A stretch of 64,000 bases of DNA from assembly GCA_041667145.1 (NCBI GenBank), contig JBAYFP010000001.1, forward strand, positions 17,958 through 81,957, read 5' to 3'. The position numbers and the translations under genes are program-made. The notes under the pieces were generated by a model, which was given only the letters and a program-made list of their open reading frames with translations, was not told the origin of the DNA and made no database searches. Shown in pieces: positions 7,727 through 49,776 of this stretch (its first letter is position 1; the number at the start of each line of letters is the position of its first letter). This DNA is from Minisyncoccota bacterium (GTDB taxonomy: Bacteria; Patescibacteriota; Minisyncoccia; Phycocordibacterales; UBA9973).

Positions 7727-8203
7727 AAATTATTTACTAGAACGCAAAAAGCTCCCAGCCAGCTTGATGGTTTTTAAGCCACCCGTATCCGTTTCCAGAT
7801 ACGACACAGTGAAGTGTAAACTCTGACTAGGAGTTCTTTATTCTTCACTGTGTTTTTAACCATACCTTATAGCTTTTTAAGCAATAAGGGTTAGGTCCTG
7901 TTTATTTAATTGTATTTATATTGTAACAAAAGAGAATTTGATAGTCTAATGTTTTTTTATTTGACTTTTAAAGCTTAGGAGTTAGAATAGAAATGTAGAG
8001 TTTTTAAAAAATAAAATATATGGCTTCTATTATTCAGAGAGTTTTTGTTTTTCCGCGAGACCAATAATTTTGGATACGCGAGATAGTCTTTAAAAGATTA
8101 AACCTGAAAATTGAATGCTAAATTATTACTAAAAAGATAACTCTTTTTAGGGTGTATTTAGTGTTTAATTTTTAGCTTAGGTCTAAAAATGAACAAATAA
8201 ATT

Positions 8204-10111: not shown

Positions 10112-10416
10112 GGATCGAACCTACGACCAATCGCTTACACTTTATCTTCTATTACTAGAAGTGTGGACTATATCATCTCCATGTTCATAACTTATGAATT
10201 TAGGAGCAAGGCGCTTCGCGCTCTAATAAATATTAGAGAGCTACTCCAAAATGGATAGTCTCTACACCTTCCTCAATTTTGTAATTGAGGCTTGGCTCGG
10301 GATTACCCTAAAAGGGCTTCCCCGAATTCACCTTGTTGTTCAACCTACCTTTTGATAGGAAGCTGCGTAATTTTTTATCGACACAGGCGACCGCTCTACC
10401 GCTGAGCTACCCCGGA
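10100..10416 (-). tRNA. tRNA (probably Asn-GUU) interrupted by a group I intron in the anticodon loop
   Basis: 5' exon TCCGGGGTAGCTCAGCGGTAGAGCGGTCGCCTGT (10383-10416) and 3' exon TAAGCGATTGGTCGTAGGTTCGATCCCTACCCCCGGAG (10100-10137) fold into a 72-nt cloverleaf with anticodon loop CUGUUAA; exact splice junction not resolvable by eye. Confidence 0.7.
10138..10382 (-). ncRNA. group I intron (IC3-like, Azoarcus/cyanobacterial tRNA intron type)
   Basis: contains AATCCCGAGCCAAGCC and GGAAGGTGTAGAGACTATCC, matching the conserved P7/P3 region (GAGCCAAGC, GAAGGUGUAGAGACUA) of Azoarcus tRNA-Ile and cyanobacterial tRNA-Leu introns. Confidence 0.7.
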
Positions 10417-10561
10417 ATGTATTTAATTAATGAAAGAACTTTAATTATCTTAACAGAAAATGAGTAAAAAACAATAGAGTAGATTTATTATTGAATTTAA
10501 AGTATAATATGAATTATATTATTAATAATCAAAATCATAACCGTTTAAGGCGGTAAATTAT

Positions 10562-11844: not shown

Positions 11845-11849
11845 ATCAT

Positions 11850-11965
11850 AAAAAGTGAAGAACGAATATTTTTGCCGGTACGGATTTTTTGAAGCTTAAA
11901 AAATCCTGAAGTTTTCGCGCCGTCGCGCTCAAAACCCCTTAAAAACATTGTTCTTCACTTTTTAT
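11850..11965. repeat. structured repeat element copy 1: conserved 71-nt core inside a locus-specific long inverted repeat
   Basis: core 11876-11946 CGGTACGGATTTTTTGAAGCTTAAAAAATCCTGAA..AAACCCCTTAAAAAC shared with 27798-27869; flanks AAAAAGTGAAGAAC / GTTCTTCACTTTTT pair. Confidence 0.7.
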
Positions 11966-12135
11966 TTTTCACAAAACTTGTCGTAGGCGTACTTATTAGA
12001 AAACATTGCGCAGGAGCTTAGAAAATAAAGGAGGTATCCCGGACTATTATTTTCTTGAGTGACGAGCATAGCAATCCGCCAGCTGGCGGATATGCGTGTT
12101 TTATAATAAGTATGCCAAGTAAAAAGATTTGTGAT

Positions 12136-12641: not shown

Positions 12642-14402
12642 ATGAAAAGCGAGACGAAGCAATGTCAAAACTGCAAACAAGACTTTACAATAGAACCAGA
12701 AGATTTTAATTTCTATGAGAAAATAAAGGTTCCTCCACCGACTTTTTGCCCACTTTGTAGGGCAGAAAGGCGATTTACTTTTAGGAATGAACGTAAGCTT
12801 TTTAAAGTAAAAGATTTTTATACTGATAAGGATATTTTTTCTTTATATCCAGCACGTGATAGTAAAAAAAATTTTACTCAAGAAGAGTGGTTTAGTGACA
12901 ATTGGGATGCATTAGAATATGGTCGTGATTATGATTTTTCTATACCATTTTTTAAACAATTTTTTGATTTAGAAAAAGTAGTTCCAGTTTGGCCGCTTCG
13001 AGTTGAATACGTCGTAAATAGTCCATATAGTGCTAATGCCTCAGCACTTAAAAATTGTTATTTATGTTTTAATTCAAGTCAATCAAAAGATTGTATGTAT
13101 AATAATGCAATAGACTTCAGTACAGACTGTATTGATAATTCCCATATTTTTCAATCAGAACGATGCTATGAATGTTTTTGGACGGATAATTCCTACCAAT
13201 GTTATTATTCTATAATTTGTAAAGAATCCCATAATCTTTATTTTTGTAAAAATTGTCTCGGATGCTCGGATTGTTTTGGATGTGTAGATTTAAGGAAATC
13301 CTCGTATTGTATTTTTAATAAGCAATATACAAAAGAGGATTATAAAAAGGAGATAGAGAATATGAAATTAAATACCATTTCTGGAGTTTCAAGAGCAAGA
13401 GAGAAGGCTCGAGTTTTTTGGTTGACTATGCCAACAAAATATCATCAAGGTTTAAAAAATTACGATTCGACTGGTTCTTATGTAACGAATTGCAAAAACG
13501 TAAAAGAAAGTTTTCTAATGAGAGAAGGAGAAAATATTAAATATTCTCAATATTTACAAGTTCCGAAAAATAAAGATTGTTATGATGCTACTGCATGGGG
13601 ACAGAATATGGAACTTAATTATGAAACTTGTCTTTGTGGGGAAAATTCTTTTAATATAAAATTTTGTTCAGATTGCTGGCCTAATTTTAAAGATTCTGAA
13701 TATTGTATAAGTATGTTTAGTTGCTCGGATTGTTTTGGATGTGTTGGTTTAAAGAAAAAACAATATTGTATTTTGAATAAACAATATACAAAAGAAGAAT
13801 ATAAAATTTTAGTAGAAAAAATTAAAAAACATATGGATGATATGCCTTTTGTTGACAGTAAAGAAAGGATATATAAATATGGAGAATTTTTTCCTATAGA
13901 ATTTTCTCCATTTGGTTATAACAATACAACAGCAATTCAGTATTTTAAAATGACAAAGGAAGAAGCAGAAAAAAAGGGTTATCCATGGAAAGAAATTGAA
14001 AGGGGTGAATATAATATCACTAAAAAAGTATCAGAACTTTCTGATTCTATTAACGATGTTGATGATTCTATCTTAAAAGAAGTAATAGAATGTGAAAACT
14101 GTAAGAGACCTTATCGTATTTTAAAGAATGAATTTATTTTTTATAAAAAAGAAAATTTACCTCTACCTGATTTGTGTGATGAATGTCGTTTTAGAAGAAG
14201 AATTAATGACAGGCTGGGGATTAAGTTGTATGAAAGGTCCTGTATGTGTAAAAGCGATTCTGATGAAACAGGTGTCTATAAAAATACTGTAGAACATATA
14301 CATGGTAATGAACCTTGTGGTGAAATATTTAAAACTGGATATAGCCCTGATTCTAAAGAGATAGTATACTGTGAGAAATGTTATCAGCAGGAGGTTTATT
14401 AA
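12642..14402 (+). CDS. cysteine-rich protein, paralog 1 (about 60 Cys; N- and C-terminal zinc-ribbon-like CxxC pairs; internal repeats)
   Basis: CQNCKQDF..CPLCR N-terminal ribbon; internal duplicated blocks ..CKNCLGCSDCFGCV.. and ..CSDCFGCVGLKKKQYCILNKQYTKEEY..; C-terminal CENCK..CDECR..CEKCY. Confidence 0.6.
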   Translation: MKSETKQCQNCKQDFTIEPEDFNFYEKIKVPPPTFCPLCRAERRFTFRNERKLFKVKDFYTDKDIFSLYPARDSKKNFTQEEWFSDNWDALEYGRDYDFSIPFFKQFFDLEKVVPVWPLRVEYVVNSPYSANASALKNCYLCFNSSQSKDCMYNNAIDFSTDCIDNSHIFQSERCYECFWTDNSYQCYYSIICKESHNLYFCKNCLGCSDCFGCVDLRKSSYCIFNKQYTKEDYKKEIENMKLNTISGVSRAREKARVFWLTMPTKYHQGLKNYDSTGSYVTNCKNVKESFLMREGENIKYSQYLQVPKNKDCYDATAWGQNMELNYETCLCGENSFNIKFCSDCWPNFKDSEYCISMFSCSDCFGCVGLKKKQYCILNKQYTKEEYKILVEKIKKHMDDMPFVDSKERIYKYGEFFPIEFSPFGYNNTTAIQYFKMTKEEAEKKGYPWKEIERGEYNITKKVSELSDSINDVDDSILKEVIECENCKRPYRILKNEFIFYKKENLPLPDLCDECRFRRRINDRLGIKLYERSCMCKSDSDETGVYKNTVEHIHGNEPCGEIFKTGYSPDSKEIVYCEKCYQQEVY

Positions 14403-14405
14403 ATA

Positions 14406-14460
14406 CCCAGACGTTGGACATCTGGGGATTATCCATAGTTCCAGATGTCCAACATCTGGG
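14406..14460 (+). other. pair of GC-rich hairpins (inverted copies of a 21-nt unit) between the Cys-rich paralogs
   Basis: CCCAGACGTTGGACATCTGGG (14406-14426) and CCAGATGTCCAACATCTGG (14441-14459), each self-complementary. Confidence 0.5.
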
Positions 14461-14471
14461 TGAAGAAAATC

Positions 14472-16238
14472 ATGGAGTATAAAAATGAAAATAAAATATG
14501 TCAAAACTGTAAACAAGATTTTACAATAGAGCCAGAAGATTTCAATTTTTATGAAAAAATAAAGGTACCTTCACCGACGTTTTGTCCACTTTGTAGGGCA
14601 CAGAGAAGATTTGCTTTTAGAAATGAAAAAAAATTTTTTCGTACAAAAAGCGCATTTTCTAATAAGGACATTTTTTCTTTATTACCCAAAGAAAGTCAAA
14701 GAAAAATTGTGACCGAAGAAGAGTGGCATGGAGATACATGGGACGCGATGGAATATGCTAGTGAAATAGATTTTTCAAAACCATTTTTGAAACAAATTTT
14801 AGATTTAGAAAAACTAATACCCATTTATAATCTAAATTGTCAATTTATGGTAAATAGTCAGTATTCAGGGAATGCGACAGCCCTTAGAAATTGTTATCTT
14901 TGTTTTAATTCTAACCATTCTGAAGATTCTATGTATGGGAATGCAATCGATAGCTCAAAGGATTGTGTAGATAATTCACATGTAAACCATTCTGAAAGAT
15001 GTTATGAATGTTTTTGGTTAGAAAATTGTTATCAATGTTATTTTTCGATAATATGTAAAGATTCTTTTAATCTATATTTTTGTAAGAATTGCGTAGGATC
15101 TTCAAATTGTTTTGGGTGTATGAATTTAAGTAAATCATCTTTCTGTATTTTTAATAAACAATATACAAAAGAAGAATATGAAATTGAAATAGAAAAAATG
15201 AAATTGAACACAATTTCAGGAATTTCAAAAGCTAGAGAAAAAGCACGTATATTCTGGTTAACTAAACCAGTAAAAAATCATCAGGGTTTGAAGAATTTGA
15301 ATTCAACAGGTTCTTATGTGACAAATTGTAAAAACGTAAATGATAGTTATTTAATTAGGGAGAGTGAAAATATGCGTTATTGTCAGTATATGCAGGTTTC
15401 AGGTAACAAGGATTGTTATGATACCTCTATTTGGGGAGAACACATGGAGTTGGATTATGAGACTTGTCTTTCTGGTGAAAATTCTTACAATTTAAAATTC
15501 TGCTTAAATTGTTGGCCAGCTTGTCGGAATAATGAATATTGTATTAATCTTTTTAGTACGACGGATTGTTTTGGTTGTGTTGGTTTGAAAAAGAAACAGT
15601 ATTGTATCTTAAATAAACAATATACAAAAGAAGAATACGAAATTTTGGTAGAAAAAATTAAGAACCATATGTATGAAATGCCATATGTTGATTCACAAGG
15701 TCTTGTTTATAAATATGGGGAGTTTTTCCCAATAGAATTTTCAGCATATGGATACAACAATTCGATTGCTTTTCAACATTTCCCGATTACGAAAGATGAG
15801 GCAGAAAAAAGGGGATATTTATGGATTGAAGTTCCTCATGGAGAATATACTATTACGAAAAAAGTTTCGGATCTCCCAGATTCGATTGATGATGTTGATG
15901 ATAATTTTTTAAGGGAAGTTGTAGAATGTGAAAATTGTAAAAATGCTTTTCGTGTCTTAGAGGATGAATTAAATTTTTTACAAAAAGAGAAACTTCCTTT
16001 ACCGACGATGTGTCATGATTGTAGACATAAAAGAAGGATAAGTGATAGATTGGAAATAAAATTATATGAAAGATCTTGTATGTGCAAGGGGGACTTTGAT
16101 GAAACTGGTGTTTATAAAAATACTGTAAAACATATACATAGTGATGAACCTTGCGGTGAAATATTTAAAACTGGATATAATCCTGATTCAAAAGAAATAG
16201 TATATTGTGAAAAATGTTATCAGCAGGAGGTATATTAA
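14472..16238 (+). CDS. cysteine-rich protein, paralog 2 (tandem duplicate of 12642-14402)
   Basis: roughly two-thirds identical to paralog 1 along full length; start moved to the Met aligned with paralog 1 (the ORF-track start 14445 overlaps the hairpin). Confidence 0.6.
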   Translation: MEYKNENKICQNCKQDFTIEPEDFNFYEKIKVPSPTFCPLCRAQRRFAFRNEKKFFRTKSAFSNKDIFSLLPKESQRKIVTEEEWHGDTWDAMEYASEIDFSKPFLKQILDLEKLIPIYNLNCQFMVNSQYSGNATALRNCYLCFNSNHSEDSMYGNAIDSSKDCVDNSHVNHSERCYECFWLENCYQCYFSIICKDSFNLYFCKNCVGSSNCFGCMNLSKSSFCIFNKQYTKEEYEIEIEKMKLNTISGISKAREKARIFWLTKPVKNHQGLKNLNSTGSYVTNCKNVNDSYLIRESENMRYCQYMQVSGNKDCYDTSIWGEHMELDYETCLSGENSYNLKFCLNCWPACRNNEYCINLFSTTDCFGCVGLKKKQYCILNKQYTKEEYEILVEKIKNHMYEMPYVDSQGLVYKYGEFFPIEFSAYGYNNSIAFQHFPITKDEAEKRGYLWIEVPHGEYTITKKVSDLPDSIDDVDDNFLREVVECENCKNAFRVLEDELNFLQKEKLPLPTMCHDCRHKRRISDRLEIKLYERSCMCKGDFDETGVYKNTVKHIHSDEPCGEIFKTGYNPDSKEIVYCEKCYQQEVY

Positions 16239-16290: not shown

Positions 16291-16812
16291 ATGAAAAATG
16301 AAAAAAAAAATCCCAGTACTAGAGCAAAGCTCAGTACAGGACAAGGGAAGATAGTAGTAGTTAGTGGGGGATTTGATCCACTTCATATTGGACATATTCG
16401 CTATATGCAAGAGGCAAAAAAACTGGGCGATAAATTAATTGTCATTTTAAACAATGATAATTGGAAAAGACAAAAAAGAAAGCATGTTTTTATGCCTGAT
16501 CACGAACGCAAAGAAATTATAGAAGCTTTAGCTTGTGTAGACAGGGTAATTATTAGCGGACACTCTAAAAATACAAAAGGTCCTAAAAATATGAGTGTGA
16601 GCAAAGAGTTGCTTAAAATTAAACCGCATATTTTCGCCAATGGTGGAGACAGGAATGAAGAAGATGCCAAAGATCCAAACTCCTCCCAATATTTTGATGT
16701 GGAAATGTGTAAGAAACTTGGTATCCAAATGGTTTTTAACGTAGGTAGAGGCGGAAAAATCAGGAGCTCGTCTGAACTTCTCAAAGAATATTCAAAAAAA
16801 ATAAAGAAATAA
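16291..16812 (+). CDS. cytidylyltransferase-like nucleotidyltransferase (HldE/RfaE domain II / TagD-like)
   Basis: VSGGFDPLHIGHIRYMQEAKKLGD (HxGH motif), ISGHS..; N-terminus includes a palindromic GTACT element. Confidence 0.6.
   Translation: MKNEKKNPSTRAKLSTGQGKIVVVSGGFDPLHIGHIRYMQEAKKLGDKLIVILNNDNWKRQKRKHVFMPDHERKEIIEALACVDRVIISGHSKNTKGPKNMSVSKELLKIKPHIFANGGDRNEEDAKDPNSSQYFDVEMCKKLGIQMVFNVGRGGKIRSSSELLKEYSKKIKK
16312..16340. repeat. GTACT-family palindromic element (short-loop form) inside the CDS N-terminus
   Basis: CCCAGTACTAGAGCAAAGCTCAGTACAGG; compare 44881-44916 and 50562-50594. Confidence 0.55.
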
Positions 16813-16875: not shown

Positions 16876-17991
16876 ATGGTAAAAATACTAAAGAAACAGG
16901 GGAAAATAGTCAAAGTCAAAAAACAAAACAAAAAAACTGTTTCACTTAAAACTCGTAAAAAAGGCAAAAAAATAATTAAAATAGCGAAACTTAAAAGATT
17001 TTCGCATAATCCAATTATTGAGCCTAGCCCATATCCTTGGGAATCCAAAGCTACATTTAATCCAACTGCCTTTTTAGTGGATGGAAAAATTCATCTTATT
17101 TATCGAGCAATCGGTGATGATGATGTATCAGTTTTAGGATATGCTTCTAGTTTAGATGGTTCTAAAATAAAAGAAAGGTTTGCATATTCTATTTATAATA
17201 AATTTGGAAAATTTGTAAAATCTGGAGAGCCTATAAACTATATTTCAGGAGGGGGGTGGAATGGTGGTTGTGAAGATCCACGTGTTACTTTGATAGATAA
17301 TGTAGTTTATATGATTTATACAGCTTTTGATGGTTGGGGATCTTTACGAATGGCTTTAACTTCTATCAAACTAGATGATTTTAAAAAAAAGAAATGGAAC
17401 TGGGAAAAACCAATTTTAATTTCTCCTCCTGGTGAAATTCATAAAAATTGGGTTTTATTTCCAGAAAAAATAAATGGTAAATTTGCGATTTTGCATAGTA
17501 TCTCTCCTAAAGTTTTAATAGATTATGTGAAAAATTTTGATGAATTTGATGGTACTAAATTTATAAAAAGTTATCACAGTAGCACTCCTTCTTGGGGAAA
17601 TTCATGGGATAATATAGTGAGAGGCGTAGGCCCAACGCCAATAAAAATCAAAATAGGTTGGCTTGTTTTATATCATGCCATGGATAGAAACGATCCCAAC
17701 AGATATAAATTGGGGGCTATGATTTTAGACCTCAAGGATCCAACAAAAGTTTTGTATCGTTCTCCTTGTCCAATATTAGAGCCAGATGAAGATTATGAGA
17801 ATGAAGGATTTAAAGCTGGTGTCATATATTCCTGTGGTGCAGTAGTGAAAGACGGACAGCTTTTTGTATACTATGGTGGGGCTGATAGTGTAGTTTGTGT
17901 AGCTTCTATAAAACTATCAGATTTGATAAATAATCTTGTGAAAAATAAAAATATTAAATTAGAAAAAAATAAAAAATTTGAACTTAATTAA
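16876..17991 (+). CDS. glycoside hydrolase family 130 (beta-mannoside phosphorylase-like, DUF377)
   Basis: GCEDPRV, YTAFDG, YYGGAD hallmark motifs. Confidence 0.7.
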   Translation: MVKILKKQGKIVKVKKQNKKTVSLKTRKKGKKIIKIAKLKRFSHNPIIEPSPYPWESKATFNPTAFLVDGKIHLIYRAIGDDDVSVLGYASSLDGSKIKERFAYSIYNKFGKFVKSGEPINYISGGGWNGGCEDPRVTLIDNVVYMIYTAFDGWGSLRMALTSIKLDDFKKKKWNWEKPILISPPGEIHKNWVLFPEKINGKFAILHSISPKVLIDYVKNFDEFDGTKFIKSYHSSTPSWGNSWDNIVRGVGPTPIKIKIGWLVLYHAMDRNDPNRYKLGAMILDLKDPTKVLYRSPCPILEPDEDYENEGFKAGVIYSCGAVVKDGQLFVYYGGADSVVCVASIKLSDLINNLVKNKNIKLEKNKKFELN

Positions 17992-17997
17992 AATTAT

Positions 17998-19929
17998 ATG
18001 TTTGTTGTAAAAAAATCAGAACACAATCCTATACTTGTTCCCAATGAAGATCATTATTGGGAAGAATTTGCGAGTTTTAATCTTTGTCCGGTTAGACATA
18101 ATAAATCGATTTATGGACTTTACAGAGCCATCTCTGCAGTCGATATTTTACAAAATCCTCGTCAAAGATCTATCATAGGGATTACTCAGAGTAAAGATGG
18201 AATACATTTTAAAAATCGTGTGCCGTTTATTGTTCCTAAAGAAGAGTGGGATCAATTTGGTTGTGAAGATCCGCGGGTGACATATTTTGAAGGTGTTTTT
18301 TACACTTTTTATACGGCGCTTTCAGAGTATCCTTTCAACGCAAAAGGAATCAAGGTGGCCGTCGCAATATCTCGAGATTTAAAGAAGATTGACGAAAGAC
18401 ATTTAGTGACACCTTTTAACGCTAAAGCCATGACTCTCTTTCCAGAACGTATAAATGGAAAGATTGTTGTTGTTTTTTCTTACCACACTGATTCTCCTCC
18501 GACAAAAATAGCATTTGCGATGTTGGATAAGATAGAAGATTTGTGGTCGCAAACATTTTGGGAAAAATGGGAAAATAAAGTTGATGATTATACAATTGAT
18601 TTGAAACGTACACAGTATGATCATATCGAAGTCGGAGCTCCACCACTTAAAACAAAATACGGCTGGCTTTTTATTTATTCGCATATTCAAAATTATTTTC
18701 AATCACCTAATAATTTAGACAGAATTTTCGGTATTGAAGCGGTGTTGCTTGATTTAAAAGATCCAAGAAAGATAATTGCTAGAACTTCTGGACCGATGAT
18801 CGTTCCAGAAGAGTCTTATGAACTTTCAGGATATGTTCCAGATATAGTTTTCCCGACTGGCGCACTAATAGAAAAAGATACTCTTACGATATATTATGGT
18901 GCAGCTGATACTACGGTTTGCTCTGCAAAGGTTTGTTTGTCTGATCTTATTTCAAACATGCTTCCTAAGTTTAGAGAGGGCTCTCGTTTCAAGCGTTCTC
19001 TTAAAAATCCTATTATTGTTCCAATAAAAGAAAATAAATGGGAAGAGCAATCTACATTTAATCCCGCGTCAATATTACTTAATGGAAAGATACATATAGT
19101 GTATCGTGCAATGTCGCAGGACAATACATCTACACTTGGATATGCAATGACAAAGAATGGTGTTGATGTGATAGAACGTTTATCTTTACCCATCTATGTT
19201 CCTCGTGAAGATTTTGAAAATAAAAAAGTCAGTAATGGTAATTCTGGTTGTGAAGATCCGAGACTAACAAAGATTGGTAAGAATATTTATTTGTGTTATA
19301 CAGCTTTTGATAGTATTGGCCCTCCTAGGGTAGCTATCTCATCTATTACGGAAAAAGATTTTATTTCTCATAATTGGAGATGGGAAAAACCATTTTTAAT
19401 AACGCCACAAGGAATGGATGACAAAGATGCTTGTCTTTTTCCTAATAAATTTAAATTAGGTTATTTTATTTTGCATCGTTTAGACAATGAAATTTGTGGT
19501 GATTATTTAAACACTTTAGACTTTAAACATGAAGCTGTAAAAAAATGTATAAGAATTATTGGGCCTCGAGTAAACACATGGGACAGTGCTAAAGTAGGTA
19601 TCTCTGCTCCACCGATTAAAACAAAATATGGCTGGCTTTTGCTCTATCATGGAGTATCCAAAAGTCATAGTACTTATCGCATTGGGTGTGTTTTACTTGA
19701 TCTTAAAGATCCTGGCATTGTGCTTGCACGTAGTACTGAACCAATTTTTGAACCTGAAGAACAGTATGAAAAAATTGGTGTAGTTAATAATGTTGTATTT
19801 CCATGTGGAATGATAGTAAAAAATAAATTACTTTATATTTATTATGGAGGAGGAGATCGTGTGGTGGGGGTAGCCACGATGAAGCTTGATGTCATTTTGA
19901 AGGTACTTTTACATGGTACAAAATTATGA
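17998..19929 (+). CDS. tandem double GH130 domain protein
   Basis: two full repeats each with GCEDPR(V/L), YTA(L/F), YYG(A/G)(A/G)D motifs; 643 aa. Confidence 0.7.
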   Translation: MFVVKKSEHNPILVPNEDHYWEEFASFNLCPVRHNKSIYGLYRAISAVDILQNPRQRSIIGITQSKDGIHFKNRVPFIVPKEEWDQFGCEDPRVTYFEGVFYTFYTALSEYPFNAKGIKVAVAISRDLKKIDERHLVTPFNAKAMTLFPERINGKIVVVFSYHTDSPPTKIAFAMLDKIEDLWSQTFWEKWENKVDDYTIDLKRTQYDHIEVGAPPLKTKYGWLFIYSHIQNYFQSPNNLDRIFGIEAVLLDLKDPRKIIARTSGPMIVPEESYELSGYVPDIVFPTGALIEKDTLTIYYGAADTTVCSAKVCLSDLISNMLPKFREGSRFKRSLKNPIIVPIKENKWEEQSTFNPASILLNGKIHIVYRAMSQDNTSTLGYAMTKNGVDVIERLSLPIYVPREDFENKKVSNGNSGCEDPRLTKIGKNIYLCYTAFDSIGPPRVAISSITEKDFISHNWRWEKPFLITPQGMDDKDACLFPNKFKLGYFILHRLDNEICGDYLNTLDFKHEAVKKCIRIIGPRVNTWDSAKVGISAPPIKTKYGWLLLYHGVSKSHSTYRIGCVLLDLKDPGIVLARSTEPIFEPEEQYEKIGVVNNVVFPCGMIVKNKLLYIYYGGGDRVVGVATMKLDVILKVLLHGTKL

Positions 19930-19942
19930 TAGAATAGGGACA

Positions 19943-20013
19943 CTTGTCCCGTACTAAATTTTTGATTACGGGATATAAGGATAAAGATTATTAGTTAAAA
20001 TTTTAGTACTGGG
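19943..20013 (+). promoter_or_regulatory. GTACT-family long hairpin abutting the hpf start codon
   Basis: arms CTTGTCCCGTACTAAATTTTTGA / AAAATTTTAGTACTGGG, then ATG; same arms recur at 48408-48480. Confidence 0.55.
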
Positions 20014-20412
20014 ATGAAAATAAATTTACAAGGTAAAAATTTAGAAATTACTCCGGCTATTAATGATTATGTGGTAAAAAGAATGACCAATCTAGGTCGG
20101 TTGCTTTCGGAGATTGAAGAAAAAGGTGGAGATATTTTAGTTCGTTTTAATGTTTCAAAAACAACAAATCATCACAGAGCAGGAGATGTTTTTGAGGCTG
20201 ATTGTTCTATAAGTATAAAAGGAGAGAACTTTTATTCTAAAGTTGTGATGGAAGATCTTTATCAAGCGATAGATATGGTGAAAGAAAATCTTTTTAATGA
20301 TATTGAGAAAAATAAAGATCGTAGGCAGACACTTTTTAGGAGAGGGGCGGCGAGTGTCAAAAAGATGATGAAAGGTCTTTCAAAGCGAAATCCTTTTACG
20401 TCGAAATATTAA
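20014..20412 (+). CDS. hpf: ribosome hibernation promoting factor / RaiA (S30AE family)
   Basis: typical S30AE fold sequence (LEITPAINDYVVKRM, VRFNVSK). Confidence 0.75.
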   Translation: MKINLQGKNLEITPAINDYVVKRMTNLGRLLSEIEEKGGDILVRFNVSKTTNHHRAGDVFEADCSISIKGENFYSKVVMEDLYQAIDMVKENLFNDIEKNKDRRQTLFRRGAASVKKMMKGLSKRNPFTSKY

Positions 20413-27746: not shown

Positions 27747-27773
27747 AATAGCATAAAATTAGATTATTAAAAT

Positions 27774-27887
27774 AAAAGAGCAAAAGATAAATTTTTGTCG
27801 GTACGGATTTTTTGAAGCTTAAAAAATCCTGAAATTCTCGGCTCGACAGCCTCGAAACCCCTTAAAAACTTATCTTTTGCTCTTTTA
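27774..27887. repeat. structured repeat element copy 2 (core 27798-27869 inside a 23-bp perfect locus-specific inverted repeat)
   Basis: flanks AAAAGAGCAAAAGATAAATTTTT / AAAAACTTATCTTTTGCTCTTTT; second internal hairpin shows compensatory changes vs copy 1. Confidence 0.7.
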
Positions 27888-27894
27888 TTTTGTA

Positions 27895-44829: not shown

Positions 44830-44880
44830 TTTTGGAATCAAAAGCTTTTCTGCTAATATGAATTTATGGATTTAAAACAC

Positions 44881-44916
44881 CCCGGTACTAGAGCAAAGCT
44901 TCAGTACGGGGCAGGC
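44881..44916 (+). promoter_or_regulatory. GTACT-family palindromic element (short-loop form) upstream of lepA
   Basis: CCCCGGTACTAGAGCAAAGCTTCAGTACGGGGCAGG. Confidence 0.55.
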
Positions 44917-44927
44917 ATTAGAAATTT

Positions 44928-46811
44928 ATGAAATTAGGAAATATTAGAAACTTCAGCATAATAGCTCATATTGATCATGGGAAGAGTACCTTGGCAGATC
45001 GAATGCTTGAGATTACTCATACTATTCCAGAACGTAAAATGCGCGACCAGGTGTTAGATACTATGGAGCTTGAACGTGAACGTGGAATTACTATCAAAAT
45101 GCAACCTGTGAGGATGGAATTTTCCCCGAATTCCCCGAAACCAGGTTTAGGGGGAATTCCCCTAAACCTGGTTTCGGGGAAAAATGAGACTTATGTTTTA
45201 AACCTTATAGACACTCCTGGACATATAGATTTCTCTTATGAGGTATCTCGCGCCCTAAAGGCTGTAGAGGGGTCTATTTTGTTGGTTGATGCAACACAGG
45301 GAGTACAGGCGCAAACACTTACTACGCTTAATATGGCGCGTGAGGGAGGCATCAAGATCATCCCTGTTCTGTCTAAAATAGATTCACCTTTGGCCCGTGT
45401 GGAAGAGGTAAAAAAGGAGGTTATAGAGCTTTTAAATTGTGATTCTAATGATGTTCTTATGGTCTCAGGACGTACAGGTGAAGGAGTGGAAAATTTGTTA
45501 CAAGAGATCATAAAACGTGTTCCACCACCAAAAGAAAATTACCAACAAGGTGAAAATATTTTACGTGCTCTTGTTTTTGATTTTAAATATTCAAGCCATA
45601 AAGGTGTGATAGTTTTTATTCGATTACTTGATGGGCAAGTAAAGAAAGGAGAGAGTTTAATTTTTTCAGTTTCAGGAGAGAAATTTAGTTCTCTTGAAGT
45701 TGGTACTTTTTCTCCTGAAGAAACTCCTAGGGATTTTTTGTCAGCAGGAGACACAGGATACATTGTCACAGGTATTAAAAGGCCAGGTATAGCTTCTGTT
45801 GGAGATACCATTACTAAAGAAAAAAATCCATTACCTCCGCTTCCTGGATACATGCAACCGATGCCTGTCGTTTGGGCTTCTGTTTTTCCTGAAGACGCGG
45901 ATGACTTTATGGAGTTAAAGGCCTCATTAGGTAAATTAAAACTTTCGGATTCTTCTTTTTCTTATGAGGAAGAATCTTCAGGTTCATTGGGGCGGGGTTT
46001 TCGTTGTGGATTTTTAGGAATGTTACATTTGGAAATAATTACAGAAAGATTAAGACGAGAATTTAATTTAAAATTAGTAATCACAACACCTTCTATTACT
46101 TACGAAGTTGTTATGAAAAATCCTTCTATAGTTTCAGGGCATTTTGGTAAAAAAGTAAAAATATATTCTCCATATTTTTTCCCAGATGATGGAAATATAG
46201 AAACAGTTCAAGAGCCTTGGGTTGATGTAAAAATAATTTCTCCAGCAAAATTTTTAGGTAATATTATGCAACTTCTTTTCGACCATGAAGCGGAAGTAAG
46301 AGAAACAGATAATTTTGGTAATAATCGTTCTTCTTTATCTGTCAGAATGCCACTTCGTGAACTTATGCGTAATTTTTTTGATGAATTAAAAAGTGTAACA
46401 TCTGGCTATGGATCTATTTCTTATAAAATAGGGGAAATGAGAGAAGCGAATGTCACTCGACTCGATATTCTTGTAGCGGATGAAGTCGTTCCAGCTTTTT
46501 CGAGAGTTATAGCAAAAAAGAGAGCGGAAGAAGAAGCAGAAAAAGCTGTTGAAAGGCTAGAAGGTATTTTACCAAGACAGATGTTTACTTTAAAAATACA
46601 GGGTAGAGCTTTAGGGCGTATTATTTCTTCACGTACAATGTCTGGCATGAAAAAAGATGTCACCCAGCACATGTATGGTGGAGATATCACTCGTAAAATG
46701 AAGCTTCGTGAGAAACAGAAAAAAGGGAAGAAGAAAATGAAAGAGCGAGGCAGGGTAAATATCCCACAGGATGTATTCTTAAAAATGATGCGTTCGGGGA
46801 ATGATAATTAG
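44928..46811 (+). CDS. lepA: elongation factor 4 (LepA)
   Basis: GTPase motifs AHIDHGKST, DTPGH; LepA C-terminal domain; carries in-frame palindromic insert. Confidence 0.9.
   Translation: MKLGNIRNFSIIAHIDHGKSTLADRMLEITHTIPERKMRDQVLDTMELERERGITIKMQPVRMEFSPNSPKPGLGGIPLNLVSGKNETYVLNLIDTPGHIDFSYEVSRALKAVEGSILLVDATQGVQAQTLTTLNMAREGGIKIIPVLSKIDSPLARVEEVKKEVIELLNCDSNDVLMVSGRTGEGVENLLQEIIKRVPPPKENYQQGENILRALVFDFKYSSHKGVIVFIRLLDGQVKKGESLIFSVSGEKFSSLEVGTFSPEETPRDFLSAGDTGYIVTGIKRPGIASVGDTITKEKNPLPPLPGYMQPMPVVWASVFPEDADDFMELKASLGKLKLSDSSFSYEEESSGSLGRGFRCGFLGMLHLEIITERLRREFNLKLVITTPSITYEVVMKNPSIVSGHFGKKVKIYSPYFFPDDGNIETVQEPWVDVKIISPAKFLGNIMQLLFDHEAEVRETDNFGNNRSSLSVRMPLRELMRNFFDELKSVTSGYGSISYKIGEMREANVTRLDILVADEVVPAFSRVIAKKRAEEEAEKAVERLEGILPRQMFTLKIQGRALGRIISSRTMSGMKKDVTQHMYGGDITRKMKLREKQKKGKKKMKERGRVNIPQDVFLKMMRSGNDN
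45124..45179. repeat. 46-bp near-perfect palindrome inserted in frame in lepA (family C)
   Basis: CCCCGAAACCAGGTTTAGGGG-gaatt-CCCCTAAACCTGGTTTCGGGG (45133-45179), with a partial extra half-copy 45124-45132; adds about 14 aa before DTPGH. Confidence 0.75.
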
Positions 46812-46819
46812 ATTAAGAC

Positions 46820-46912
46820 AGGCCACTCTTGAAAGAATTTTCGAAACTGCGCCCTCGGAGTCATAAGGACAGGGAACCCACACGTTTCTTAAAATTCTTT
46901 CAAGAGTGGCCT
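46820..46912 (+). terminator. long hairpin (22-bp perfect stem, about 49-nt GC-rich loop) just after the lepA stop
   Basis: AGGCCACTCTTGAAAGAATTTT / AAAATTCTTTCAAGAGTGGCCT, followed by TTTTCAGTTATTT. Confidence 0.5.
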
Positions 46913-47450: not shown

Positions 47451-48404
47451 ATGAAAATAGCATTTTTTTATAAGTCTGAGGAAGTTCGAGAACTTTTAGA
47501 AGATTCTTTTCCTGGCAATGAAGTGTCTTTTTTTAACGAAAAATTAAGTGAGAGTAATGTTGATAAAATAAAAGAATTTGAGATTATTTCAGTATTTATA
47601 GATTCAGAAGTTAATAAGAATATTATTGACAATTTGCCAAACCTAAAATATATTACCACTCGATCGACAGGTTATGATCATATCGATTGTAAGTATGCAG
47701 AGAGTAAGGGTATAAAAGTTTCAAATGTTCCAGTTTATGGTTCAAGTACAGTAGCTGAATTTGCTTTTGCTCTTTTGTTAAATCTTTCTAGAAAAATTAG
47801 TGAAGCAGGTAAACAATTAAAAGAAGGTGGTGATTTTGAAACATCTGAGAAATGTGAAGGTTTTGATCTTGATGGAAAAACTATAGGAGTTATTGGTACA
47901 GGTAAAATTGGTAAAAATATAATTCGTATCGCTAAAGCTTTCAATATGAAAGTATTAGCTTATGATTTATATCCAGATGTTAATTTCGCAAGAGAAAATG
48001 GATTTGAATATAAAGATTTTGAAGAGATTCTTTCTGTGTCAGATGTAGTTACTTTGCATGCACCTTATACAAAAGAAAATCATCATCTTATAAACAAAGA
48101 AAATATTTTAAAAATGAAAAAAGGCGTTTACATTATAAACACTGCTCGTGGTGAACTTGTAGATAATGATGCATTACTTTTAGGTATCAATGAGGGCATT
48201 GTCGGGGGTGTCGGATTAGATGTTTTGGAAGGGGAACGTAACATTAAAAAGGGTGACAAAATTTCTCTTTTAGATAAACCTAATGTAATTATTACTCCTC
48301 ATGTAGCTTTTTATTCTAAAGAAGCGATGATGAGAATTATGCAAACGACTGTGGAAAACATAAAAGGATTCATATCTGGAAATTTACAAAATCTGGTTAG
48401 ATAA
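47451..48404 (+). CDS. D-isomer-specific 2-hydroxyacid dehydrogenase (glycerate/hydroxypyruvate reductase-like)
   Basis: GKTIGVIGTGKIGKNI Rossmann motif, catalytic R/E/H pattern. Confidence 0.75.
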   Translation: MKIAFFYKSEEVRELLEDSFPGNEVSFFNEKLSESNVDKIKEFEIISVFIDSEVNKNIIDNLPNLKYITTRSTGYDHIDCKYAESKGIKVSNVPVYGSSTVAEFAFALLLNLSRKISEAGKQLKEGGDFETSEKCEGFDLDGKTIGVIGTGKIGKNIIRIAKAFNMKVLAYDLYPDVNFARENGFEYKDFEEILSVSDVVTLHAPYTKENHHLINKENILKMKKGVYIINTARGELVDNDALLLGINEGIVGGVGLDVLEGERNIKKGDKISLLDKPNVIITPHVAFYSKEAMMRIMQTTVENIKGFISGNLQNLVR

Positions 48405-48407
48405 AAA

Positions 48408-48480
48408 ACTTGTCCCGTACTAAATTTTTGAGTAAAACAAATGGTCAATATTAATAACAATTTAAAATTTTAGTACTGGG
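48408..48480 (+). promoter_or_regulatory. GTACT-family long hairpin abutting the glycerate kinase start codon
   Basis: arms identical to 19943-20013 (CTTGTCCCGTACTAAATTTTTGA .. AAAATTTTAGTACTGGG-ATG), loop differs. Confidence 0.55.
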
Positions 48481-49776
48481 ATGAATGAAAGACTTATCAA
48501 AAATTTTGACGATTTAGCAACGACAGAAAATCGCAAGATAGCTTTAGAAATAATAGAAGCAGGGCTTGGTGCTATAAATACGAGCAAAGTGATTAGTTCT
48601 CTGGTTTCTCTTACTGGTGATGTTTTATCAGTTGCAGGTAAAAAATTTGATCTTACTAAGTATAAAAATATAAAAGTTGTTGGTTTTGGTAAATCTTCTT
48701 GTGAGGGAGCTTTAGCAATAGAGAAAATTTTGGGAGCTAGGATAACTAGCGGAGCTGTGATTGGACTTCAGAAGGCTGATTGTAAATATATTGAAACTTT
48801 TGCTGGCACACACCCAAAGCCATCCGAGGAAAACATTAAAGCAGGGGAAAAGATATATGAGATTATAAATGGTTCAAAAGAGGATGACCTTATTATTGTG
48901 CTTGTCTCTGGTGGGGGTTCTTCACTCCTTTGTTACCCTGAAAGTGAATATAAAGAAGGAGCTAGACTCTATGATGCTTTTCTAAAATCTGGCAAAACGA
49001 TAACAGAAATAAACACAGTTAGGAAACATCTCTCATTGTTTAAAGGTGGAGGATTAGCAAAAATAGCATATCCTGCGACTATCGTTGGGCTTATTTTTTC
49101 AGATATTCCTGGAAATGATTTTAAAAATGTTGCTTCTGGTGCGACATATAAAGATGACACTACTATAGAAGATGCTCAAAAAATTATTATAGAAAATAAC
49201 TTAGGGGAATTTAATTTAATTGAAACACCAAAAGAAGATAAATATTTTGAAAATGTTTTTAATTTTATTCTTGTTTCAGATAAAACTGCGGTAGATGCGA
49301 TGGCTCAAAAGTCGAGAGAGTTTAATTTGGGAGTAAATATTCTTTCTACTGAATTATACGATGAGGTAGATGAAGCGCTCGGAAAAATATTTAAAGATAA
49401 AAGTGATAGTTCTGTCGTTTTGGCTGCTGGTGAGCCTAGAATTGTTGTAAAAAAAGAAGCGGGTAAAGGTGGGAGAAGTCTTCATATGGCTCTTTCTGTA
49501 GTTGCCAAAAAACTTATAAACAAAGAAGATTTTATGAATTCTGTTTTTATATCCTTTGCCTCTGACGGTATGGACAATAGTGATGCCGCGGGAGCTATTG
49601 TCGATAAAAATACAATAGAGAAAATAGAGAAATTAAATTTAAATGTTGATGATGCTTTAGAGCGTTTTGATTCCTACCCAGTTTTCGAAAAATCAGGTGA
49701 TATGATCATGACAGGTCCTACAGGTGCAAATGTTTCAGATTTGATGTTACTTTTGACGAAAAAAAATAATTTATGA
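48481..49776 (+). CDS. glycerate 2-kinase (MOFRL family)
   Basis: MOFRL-type N- and C-terminal domains (..VVGFGKSS.., ..LVSGGGSSLL..). Confidence 0.6.
   Translation: MNERLIKNFDDLATTENRKIALEIIEAGLGAINTSKVISSLVSLTGDVLSVAGKKFDLTKYKNIKVVGFGKSSCEGALAIEKILGARITSGAVIGLQKADCKYIETFAGTHPKPSEENIKAGEKIYEIINGSKEDDLIIVLVSGGGSSLLCYPESEYKEGARLYDAFLKSGKTITEINTVRKHLSLFKGGGLAKIAYPATIVGLIFSDIPGNDFKNVASGATYKDDTTIEDAQKIIIENNLGEFNLIETPKEDKYFENVFNFILVSDKTAVDAMAQKSREFNLGVNILSTELYDEVDEALGKIFKDKSDSSVVLAAGEPRIVVKKEAGKGGRSLHMALSVVAKKLINKEDFMNSVFISFASDGMDNSDAAGAIVDKNTIEKIEKLNLNVDDALERFDSYPVFEKSGDMIMTGPTGANVSDLMLLLTKKNNL

Follow-up and report, generated by a model that had tools for sequence, protein, structure and literature searches.

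Directly before an hpf-type gene of a Minisyncoccota bacterium (contig JBAYFP010000001.1) lies a long inverted repeat that recurs before a glycerate-kinase-type gene of the same contig. What is this element, and does it serve hpf as a stress switch or many genes in a more general way? A preliminary description of the DNA had suggested a family of cis-regulatory hairpins, with thermo- or stress-responsive control of hpf as an example. We analyzed 64,000 nt of the contig, referred to as the window, and all coordinates are those of the window. The repeat is a lineage-specific palindromic element of about 72 nt, which is set exactly between the normal upstream context of a gene and its AUG. Rather than as a stress switch of hpf, this dispersed element has to be seen as a general leader element of mRNAs in a lineage devoid of Shine-Dalgarno (SD) sequences. 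It very probably represents a transcribed, sense-strand RNA hairpin that acts in cis on the adjacent gene.

A hairpin family placed directly before start codons

Exact matching located the left arm, CTTGTCCCGTACTAAATTTTTGA, at exactly two sites of the window (19943–19965 and 48409–48431), and no match was obtained in 100 shuffles. The right arm, AAAATTTTAGTACTGGG, was found at 19997–20013 and 48464–48480, and the identity of the two copies extends to TTAAAATTTTAGTACTGGG. Both right arms are directly followed by ATG (20014 and 48481). The matches bear out the earlier observation that identical left and identical right arms end at start codons. The left arm of the glycerate-kinase locus begins at 48409 and not at 48408, as given before; 48408 is the A of the AC that opens the element.

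Species-representative genomes were scanned for TTGTCCYGTACT, followed by a gap of 9–69 nt and TAGTACTGGG, a pattern that does not include the ATG. A genome-wide search for both arms near start codons had been suggested along with the first observation, and the scan yielded 106 loci. The record titles shown all belonged to metagenome-assembled genomes (MAGs) of the Patescibacteria group, mostly Nomurabacteria or Paceibacterota. Two discrete sizes were present in the genome scan, 33 nt (5 copies, including one from the window) versus 68–72 nt plus a single element of 76 nt (106 copies), and nothing between them. All 106 long copies were immediately followed by ATG and showed one orientation throughout. 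A scan of metagenomes added at least 119 further loci, and no copies were found in viral contigs. Groundwater samples of the Rifle or Hainich type are the source of many matches. The bases in front of TTGTCC turned out to be conserved as well, with T in 79, A in 102 and C in 103 of 105 copies. Owing to the conserved A and C, the unit can be written as ACUUGU...CUGGG (ACUUGUCCCGUACUAAAUUUUUGA ... UUAAAAUUUUAGUACUGGG) with a length of about 72 nt.

The interiors of the hpf and glycerate-kinase copies had been called unrelated. This holds for the comparison of the two with each other, but neither interior is arbitrary, since the two represent different subfamilies, each of them conserved in numerous genomes. 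Class A, which includes the hpf copy, has the consensus ...UGAUUACGGGRCAUAAAGAUAAAGAUUAUUAAUU... (102 copies). The class B consensus is ...UGAUUAAAACAAAUGACCAYUAUUAAUAACAAUU... (54 copies), with UGGUCA instead of UGACCA in the glycerate-kinase copy. Class C (...AAGUGAUAUAAUAAUAAGUAUUAGAAUU...) precedes an FtsA-like gene in 14 of 14 clustered copies. In sets of orthologous copies, for example the FtsA-like set, both arms are constant, but species differ in the interior and at synonymous sites of the initial codons, which argues that the arms are under selection in place. A stop codon precedes 43 of the 54 class B copies, only two of which have an outside promoter. Class A contributes 24 of the 28 copies with an outside promoter, and 14 of 16 class C copies have neither of these contexts. 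A short upstream open reading frame (ORF) in class B (ATG ACC ... TAG) was rejected because many copies carry ATA or other triplets in place of ATG. RNAalifold returned no extra conserved structure in the interiors of any class.

The 179 proteins encoded downstream of sampled copies fell into 95 BLAST clusters. Named from a reading of their N-termini only, they comprise FtsA-like and YraN-like proteins, NusG, RodA/FtsW, the ribosomal proteins L15, S9 and S16, LepA, SerS and GatA, furthermore RibE/RibH, PurA, PurF, MetK, UvrC, RecR, LigA, ClpC, DnaJ, PilB/PilC and methionine aminopeptidase. The set of carrier genes differs between genomes, and one gene family may bear different classes of the element. 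Among the sampled copies, no second hpf gene with the element was encountered.

At the gathering threshold, Rfam 15 reported only LOOT, a group I intron and four tRNAs in the whole window, and a permissive Rfam scan of 19920–20040 gave only chance matches to microRNA and small nucleolar RNA families (E ≥ 3.4). A full-text literature search returned no description of the element. The element is a candidate new RNA family for annotation, as its position indicates true start codons, and possibly the ends of transcripts, in MAGs.

Base pairing, strand and upstream context

Both sense RNAs were predicted to fold into one long hairpin, in agreement with the pairing of the arms proposed before. The minimum free energy (MFE) was -21.3 kcal/mol for the hpf copy and -20.7 kcal/mol for the glycerate-kinase copy (z about -4.4; none of 200 shuffles was as good), while the antisense strands folded at only -11.9 and -15.1 kcal/mol. 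The stem of the MFE fold runs past GGG, as UUGU in front of CCC pairs with AUGA of the start region, so that the helix is closed by three pairs with the start codon (U-A, G·U and U·G). The helix comprises 22–25 bp and contains a conserved bulge and a U·U mismatch.

In the metagenome scan eight or nine positions of the stem core were left free, so that variation of the arms was unconstrained there. Among the metagenome matches listed, the arm pair CCCGTACT/AGTACTGGG was present in 64 of 119. GTAGT was always accompanied by ACTAC or ACTAT (9 copies), GTATT by AATAC in two copies and CTC by GAG in another two. In an alignment designated A2, pair 15–72 was CG in 92 copies, GC in eight and UA in two. 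The covariation score of this alignment was 0.057 versus 0.035 in shuffles, none of 500 shuffles scored as high, and sliding the partners against each other lowered the score. A covariance model was built from the genome copies and used to find divergent copies. It revealed compensated arms in the related loci L080 (GTATG/CATAC) and L073 (GTTAG/CTAAT) as well as GTAGT/ACTAC in a short form of L028. A copy of L080 with CCTGGTAGT/ACTACCGGG stands before a TTG start, and in it the base facing the first base of the start codon was changed too. L028 and L127 each harbor, on one contig, a long copy with canonical arms together with a short copy with compensated ones, which demonstrates that compensatory changes occur per copy and not genome-wide.

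Three observations suggest that the sense strand is the relevant one. The covariance model assigned 75–100 bits to the sense and 30–43 bits to the antisense strand, G·U pairs are conserved (G26·U67 is kept in 93 of 106 copies, and G25·U62 as well as the U·G and G·U pairs with the AUG are likewise conserved), and the orientation to the gene is invariant. The compensatory changes, the G·U pairs and the strict orientation thus speak for an RNA helix formed by the sense strand, with the AUG in its base.

No SD motif was visible before genes of the window or of the related loci L002–L226. In 693 element-free ORFs of related loci, the last base of TAnnnT hexamers peaked 6 nt before the A of ATG (112 ORFs or 16%, 61 of them TG-extended), suggesting that leaderless mRNAs are common in this lineage. 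Upstream of the element, the same hexamers peaked 6 nt before the A of AC (17 copies, 10 with TG), and a leaderless-promoter weight matrix exceeded 6 in 11 copies at the AC register compared with 0–5 copies at each other register tested. Of 188 copies, about half are preceded by a same-strand ORF that ends 0–7 nt ahead of the A of AC, the distance peaking at 1 and 3 nt. At ordinary gene junctions, the distance from stop codon to ATG peaks at 1 and then at 3–4 nt, and T is preferred at position -1, as it is before the element. Since promoter spacing, stop distance and the T at -1 upstream of the A all resemble the context of an ATG, we infer that transcription covers the entire hairpin, which would open a transcript or lie within an operon RNA, and that the element sits precisely between positions -1 and +1 of the start codon. 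At hpf, the predicted promoter overlaps the stop codon of the upstream GH130 gene, and its -10 box ends 6 nt before A19942. The strict sense orientation, the compensatory changes and this predicted start site upstream of the left arm support the earlier suggestion that a hairpin in the transcript buries the region just upstream of the start codon, and the buried part includes the start codon itself. The element is unusual in that it abuts the ATG at a distance of 0 nt, is reused at about 95 gene families and replaces, with its first base, the A of the start codon relative to promoters and stop codons.

The same promoter matrix was scored along 189 copies. Predicted starts at -72 to -75 correspond to outside promoters, and those at -28/-27 to TGATATAAT of class C and to TATAAT variants of class A. 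Starts at -6 belong to TAAAAT, a hexamer that nearly all copies carry in the right arm, with the A of UAC-UGGG-AUG after a spacing of 6 nt. Class B contains ATGACC as a -35-like box 16 nt before this TAAAAT. In view of the internal clusters, some transcripts probably begin within the element and lack the left arm. In the hpf copy, TAAAAT (19996–20001) lies 6 nt before A20008, a possible internal start site. The glycerate-kinase copy has ATGGTC (48441–48446), a variant of the class B box, as -35-like sequence 16 nt before TAAAAT, and the consensus scanner found no promoter meeting its criteria in this class B copy of the window. An intrinsic terminator directly upstream was rejected as proof of an internal promoter, as it was seen in only about four of 188 copies, three of which (L064, L122 and L162) have near-identical upstream flanks.

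The short form reads CTTGTCCYGTACT-GAGCTTTGCTC-TAGTACTGGGATT. Its ends are the same as those of the long form, which confirms that the short-loop GTACT elements noticed before, with two representatives in the window (Table 1), belong to the same family. It is oriented opposite to the nearest gene and located 8–29 nt before the ATG of that gene. The stem of its loop covaries as well (GAGC/GCTC to GAAT/ATTC in L078), and C-to-U variants give a U·G pair on the element-sense strand only. Both forms occur at the same genes: lepA has the short form in the window and the long sense form in L008 and L089, and rplO the short form in L028 and the long form in L014 and L104. The first short hairpin of the window overlaps the N-terminal extension of the cytidylyltransferase ORF and is read in frame as NPSTRAKLSTGQ. 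At L003:1010-1052, the same short hairpin lies in a 16-codon upstream ORF (MNPSTRAKLSTGQEKL*), the TGA of which overlaps the next ATG.

Table 1. Positions of the long and short hairpin elements and of adjoining features in the window.
Feature	Position	Strand	Description
Predicted sigma-70-type promoter, hpf copy	19908..19935	+	TTTACA, 16 nt, TG-extended TAGAAT (TGaTAGAAT); consensus scanner, 10/12 matches
AC opening the element, hpf copy	19942..19943	+	A19942 is the predicted transcription start
Left arm, hpf copy	19944..19968	+	UUGUCCCGUACUAAA.UUUUGAUUA; from MFE structure, alignments and pair counts
Class A apical interior, hpf copy	19969..19991	+	CGGGAUAUAAGGAUAAAGAUUAU; contains UACGGG and a weak -10-like TATAAG
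Right arm, hpf copy	19992..20013	+	ends with GGG right before ATG; U20010 bulged
hpf-type gene	20014..20412	+	Pfam Ribosomal_S30AE; AUG plus next A form the last stem pairs
AC and left arm, glycerate-kinase copy	48408..48433	+	begins 3 nt past TAA (48402-48404) of the upstream 2-hydroxyacid dehydrogenase gene
Class B interior, glycerate-kinase copy	48434..48459	+	AAAACAAAUGGUCAAUAUUAAUAACA
Right arm, glycerate-kinase copy	48460..48480	+	TAAAAT at 48463-48468; U48477 bulged
Glycerate-kinase-type gene	48481..49776	+	Pfam DUF4147+MOFRL; AUG in stem base
Short form	16310..16345	-	minus strand CTTGTCCTGTACT-GAGCTTTGCTC-TAGTACTGGGAT; antisense to cytidylyltransferase ORF 16291-16812; 21 bits
Diverged short form	44880..44915	-	minus strand CCTGCCCCGTACT-GAAGCTTTGCTC-TAGTACCGGGG; 12 nt upstream of lepA (44928); 25.8 bits

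Candidate roles in translation initiation

SD-less and leaderless initiation require an unstructured or 5′-terminal start codon. In SD-less genomes with often leaderless mRNAs, a stable helix abutting the AUG would thus be a closed form for initiation. The reading we favor, although we give it somewhat less than an even chance, is that the element might work as a gate or insulator of SD-less translation initiation, and that the downstream gene would be translated only once the lower stem has been opened or removed. Sense transcription would start from a promoter that initiates at the first A of the element, as predicted for hpf, or the element would be included in an operon transcript a few nucleotides past an upstream stop codon, as at the glycerate-kinase gene. 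The RNA would then fold into the helix of 22–25 bp, closed by the U-A, G·U and U·G pairs with the AUG. Opening could occur by three routes. A ribosome terminating on the upstream ORF, 0–7 nt before the element, might open the stem by translational coupling in the intercistronic half of the copies, where the upstream ORF indeed ends within ribosome reach of the masking helix. Endonucleolytic processing of the long helix might remove the hairpin. Finally, the left arm would be absent from transcripts with an internal start, located at about -28 in class C or at about -6 behind the right-arm TAAAAT. The sequences directly show the family, its placement and orientation, the pairing and the predicted promoters, and from there we infer the start sites, the occlusion of the AUG and each opening route.

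Several points weigh against a gate. Transcription starts, processing and AUG occlusion are all predictions. The carrier genes lack a common theme, which would fit a transparent or tolerated insertion equally, and promoter-proximal copies have no upstream ribosome, so that a further factor would be needed to open their stem. Near-invariant arms in about 200 copies suggest a sequence-specific partner, which the gate model does not name, and the antisense orientation of the short form is left unexplained by it. The covariation is limited to few positions, some of the variants may share ancestry, and homogenization of palindromes at the DNA level could yield covariation, too. UACGGG in the interior of the hpf copy could pair locally with the left arm, but this class A hairpin (CCCGUA/UACGGG) was rejected as a switch: despite a few compensatory cases, 88 of 500 shuffles were as good in percent paired and 193 of 500 in covariation.

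Apart from a gate, the element could be a start-site device of this SD-less lineage in one of two other ways, an idea that we regard as rather doubtful. Either a cut at its 3′ foot would turn operon or leadered transcripts into leaderless mRNAs beginning with 5′-AUG, making it a natural insulator, or a loop-out of 70 nt would let a ribosome that finishes the upstream ORF or is bound at the 5′ end restart at the AUG across the base of the helix, in a kind of hairpin-bridged reinitiation or shunting.

The nearest alternative to the gate is a signal for RNA processing or stability, transparent and not regulatory, in which an RNase III-type or a 3′-base-cutting nuclease cleaves the helix and leaves a leaderless or nearly leaderless downstream mRNA; the halves of the hairpin may in addition protect the new RNA ends. 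The helix has the size and shape of RNase III sites, which measure at least about 20 bp with bulges or internal loops: besides the conserved bulge and the U·U mismatch, it has 22 pairs in the tested model, with 96.6% of the cells paired. RNase III is named where PMC12641178 discusses enzymes retained in the Candidate Phyla Radiation (CPR). A cut at the base of the stem would explain the spacing of 0 nt in 106/106 copies alongside prevalent leaderless genes, upstream contexts like those of ordinary ATGs are expected for an insert that is removed from the RNA, and promoter-proximal copies would become translatable, where the gate model needs a further factor. For the promoter-proximal copies and for the ATG-like context, processing is an explanation at least equal to the gate. 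RNase III, however, usually cuts within stems and not at their base, and the 0-nt spacing is therefore not explained by this enzyme. Moreover, cleavage and a hairpin-specific nuclease are both hypothetical, and a promoter-proximal copy could be leaderless without any element. We consider this explanation rather unlikely. Still less probable in our view is a miniature palindromic repeat, selfish or once mobile and of the type of miniature inverted-repeat transposable elements, REP or Correia, which landed at the -1/+1 junction of start codons, was tolerated since it folds away, and has arms conserved for mobilization or by turnover and not for a host function. Such a history would agree with the two discrete sizes without intermediates, with carrier genes that differ per genome across 95 families, with gene families (lepA, rplO) bearing different classes or the reversed short form, with upstream contexts like those of untouched start codons, and with another palindrome inserted in frame in lepA of the same genome. 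The strongest indication that the family has a past at the DNA level or as a mobile element comes from the reversed orientation of the short form. However, no target-site duplication is readable at the junctions, where the element is flanked by (T)AC at its left and ATG at its right end and direct repeats do not exceed 1 base, and a transposase for the element is not known. All 106 copies lie in one orientation at true start codons, viral contigs yielded no copies, and although genes and classes differ between genomes as for insertion at unrelated sites, the 14 FtsA-like class C copies are clearly orthologous and have kept their arms while interior and synonymous sites diverged, which speaks for selection in place.

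An expression cassette or operator at the DNA level, with the RNA hairpin being incidental, is improbable. The right arm would supply the -10 box (TAAAAT) for a start at -6, the interior the -35 box (ATGACC in class B) or an extended -10 (class C), and the left arm an UP-like or regulator-binding site, with a dimeric protein binding to the GTACT/AGTAC palindrome. The clustering of predicted starts at -6 and -28/-27 inside the element, the correlation of interior class with the presence of an outside promoter, the few copies that directly follow an intrinsic terminator and so need an internal promoter, and the occurrence of the same DNA motif in opposite orientation in the short form are in line with this. 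Yet operator half-sites are close to each other and act independently of orientation, whereas GTACT and AGTAC are 49–50 bp apart and 106/106 copies have one orientation before ATG. The compensatory changes maintain complementarity and not identity to a consensus site, and both the G·U positions and the fold energies depend on the strand. The conserved outside promoters are directed at the element's first base, and in the class B copy of the window no promoter satisfied the consensus criteria. The operator for a dimeric regulator, offered as an alternative in the preliminary description, is therefore a poor fit. It is highly improbable that the hairpin serves hpf and a few partners as a dedicated RNA thermometer or stress sensor. 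Weak terminal pairs, bulges and mismatches are features of RNA thermometers, and the helix combines a bulge and a mismatch with weak terminal pairs at a start codon that, as in thermometers, is itself paired by the leader hairpin. However, no SD sequence is present that could be masked, and the helix, predicted at -21 kcal/mol at 37°C, is to our knowledge far more stable than known thermometers. No association with heat-shock, cold-shock or virulence genes was seen; the downstream genes form 95 unrelated, mostly housekeeping clusters, and no other hpf of the sample has the element. The proposed thermo- or stress-responsive control of hpf was thus not borne out.

Translation start without SD sequences is poorly understood in CPR/Patescibacteria, which are mostly uncultured. 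A 72-nt hairpin at the start codons of dozens of essential genes offers a testable handle on initiation, operon processing and coupling, and its upstream context, resembling that of a bare ATG, raises its value as a test case.

Other repeats of the window and comparison with known systems

Further repeats and structured RNAs were noticed in the window. A perfect palindrome of 23+23 nt (TTCCCCGAAACCAGGTTTAGGGG / CCCCTAAACCTGGTTTCGGGGAA) lies in frame inside lepA at 45131–45181. Some 19 residues (SPNSPKPGLGGIPLNLVSG) are thereby inserted into the GTPase domain between ...VRMEF and KNETYVLNLIDTPGH, which is reminiscent of the Rickettsia palindromic elements in coding genes. Perfect inverted arms of 22 nt (AGGCCACTCTTGAAAGAATTTT / AAAATTCTTTCAAGAGTGGCCT) with an interior of 49 nt follow 9 nt past the lepA stop codon (46820–46912) and could be a structured RNA or another palindromic element. 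A second family of intergenic inverted repeats is represented at 11848–11968 and 27769–27891 (77% identical, arms of 25–28 nt, interior of about 68 nt, GCCGGTACGGATTTTTTGAAGCTTAAAAAATCCTGAA...); neither copy reaches the gathering threshold of any Rfam family. Three copies of GCTCCAGACTTGGGAGGATGTTCGAATG..., 86–89% identical and spaced by 1071 and 517 nt, were found at 449–485, 1520–1556 and 2037–2073, and their core GTTCGAAT resembles a tRNA T-loop. The minus strand carries a LOOT RNA (RF03000, 77 bits) at 7766–7897 and a group I intron (RF00028, 66.7 bits) at 10145–10456. ARAGORN called no tRNA around this intron; group I introns in tRNA genes of Patescibacteria are the topic of a preprint. 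At the protein-coding level, the ORFs 12642–14402 and 14445–16238 are tandem paralogues (12642–16238) with 72–82% DNA identity over most of their length, and the GH130-type region (16876–19929) comprises three repeated blocks (repeat families D1–D5, D7 and D10; Pfam).

In its behavior, the element resembles Correia and ERIC repeats, REP/REPIN sequences, RNase III hairpins of the T7 type and start-occluding leaders with translational coupling, and it may exemplify a palindromic repeat recruited into gene expression. Correia elements of Neisseria (CREE/NEMIS) and enterobacterial ERIC/IRU sequences are small, dispersed palindromes of transcribed intergenic regions, frequently right upstream of genes, which occur in size variants, provide promoter elements in some cases and form long hairpins in mRNAs that RNase III is able to process. 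The present element shares with them the small size, the dispersed palindromic character in several sizes, the position upstream of genes and the long mRNA hairpin. Correia repeats are bounded by terminal inverted repeats with a TA duplication, and their distance to start codons is not fixed; in contrast, the present element lies in sense only and 0 nt from the ATG in 106/106 copies, no duplication is readable at its junctions, and its orthologous copies are conserved across species.

REP, BIME and REPIN sequences are imperfect palindromes present in many copies per genome, as short singlets and as longer hairpin units. An imperfect palindrome in two sizes is also found here. REPs, however, are mostly located 3′ of genes, bear no fixed relation to start codons and are mobilized by a RAYT transposase, while 106/106 copies of the present element abut ATG and its long form does not consist of two short ones; a RAYT gene was not searched for. 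Stem-loop TIGR arrays are described, in bioRxiv 10.64898/2026.09.09.750476, as tandem units of palindromic stems with box C/D motifs and variable spacer pairs beside a tas gene. A TIGR array (TIGR-Tas) was rejected for the present family, as its copies are dispersed singletons with conserved interiors and a consensus without RUGAUGA or CUGA.

The intercistronic RNase III hairpins of T7 early mRNAs and the intervening sequences of 23S rRNA are bulged helices of at least 20 bp that are cut or removed without harm to expression. The helix of 22–25 bp, the conserved bulge and mismatch and the intercistronic location of about half of the copies recall these hairpins. T7 sites lie upstream of a normal ribosome-binding site and do not form a multi-copy genomic family, whereas the present element stands against the AUG, occurs in many copies and would be cleaved only hypothetically. 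In the rpoS leader, in RNA thermometers and at the MS2 coat-replicase junction, the start region is paired upstream and opened by an upstream ribosome or a trans-acting factor. The present element comes close to these leaders in that its AUG pairs with UGU and upstream stop codons are located 0–7 nt before the stem. Occluding leaders are single-gene devices that mask an SD sequence; the present element, in contrast, is one family at about 95 gene families in SD-less genomes.

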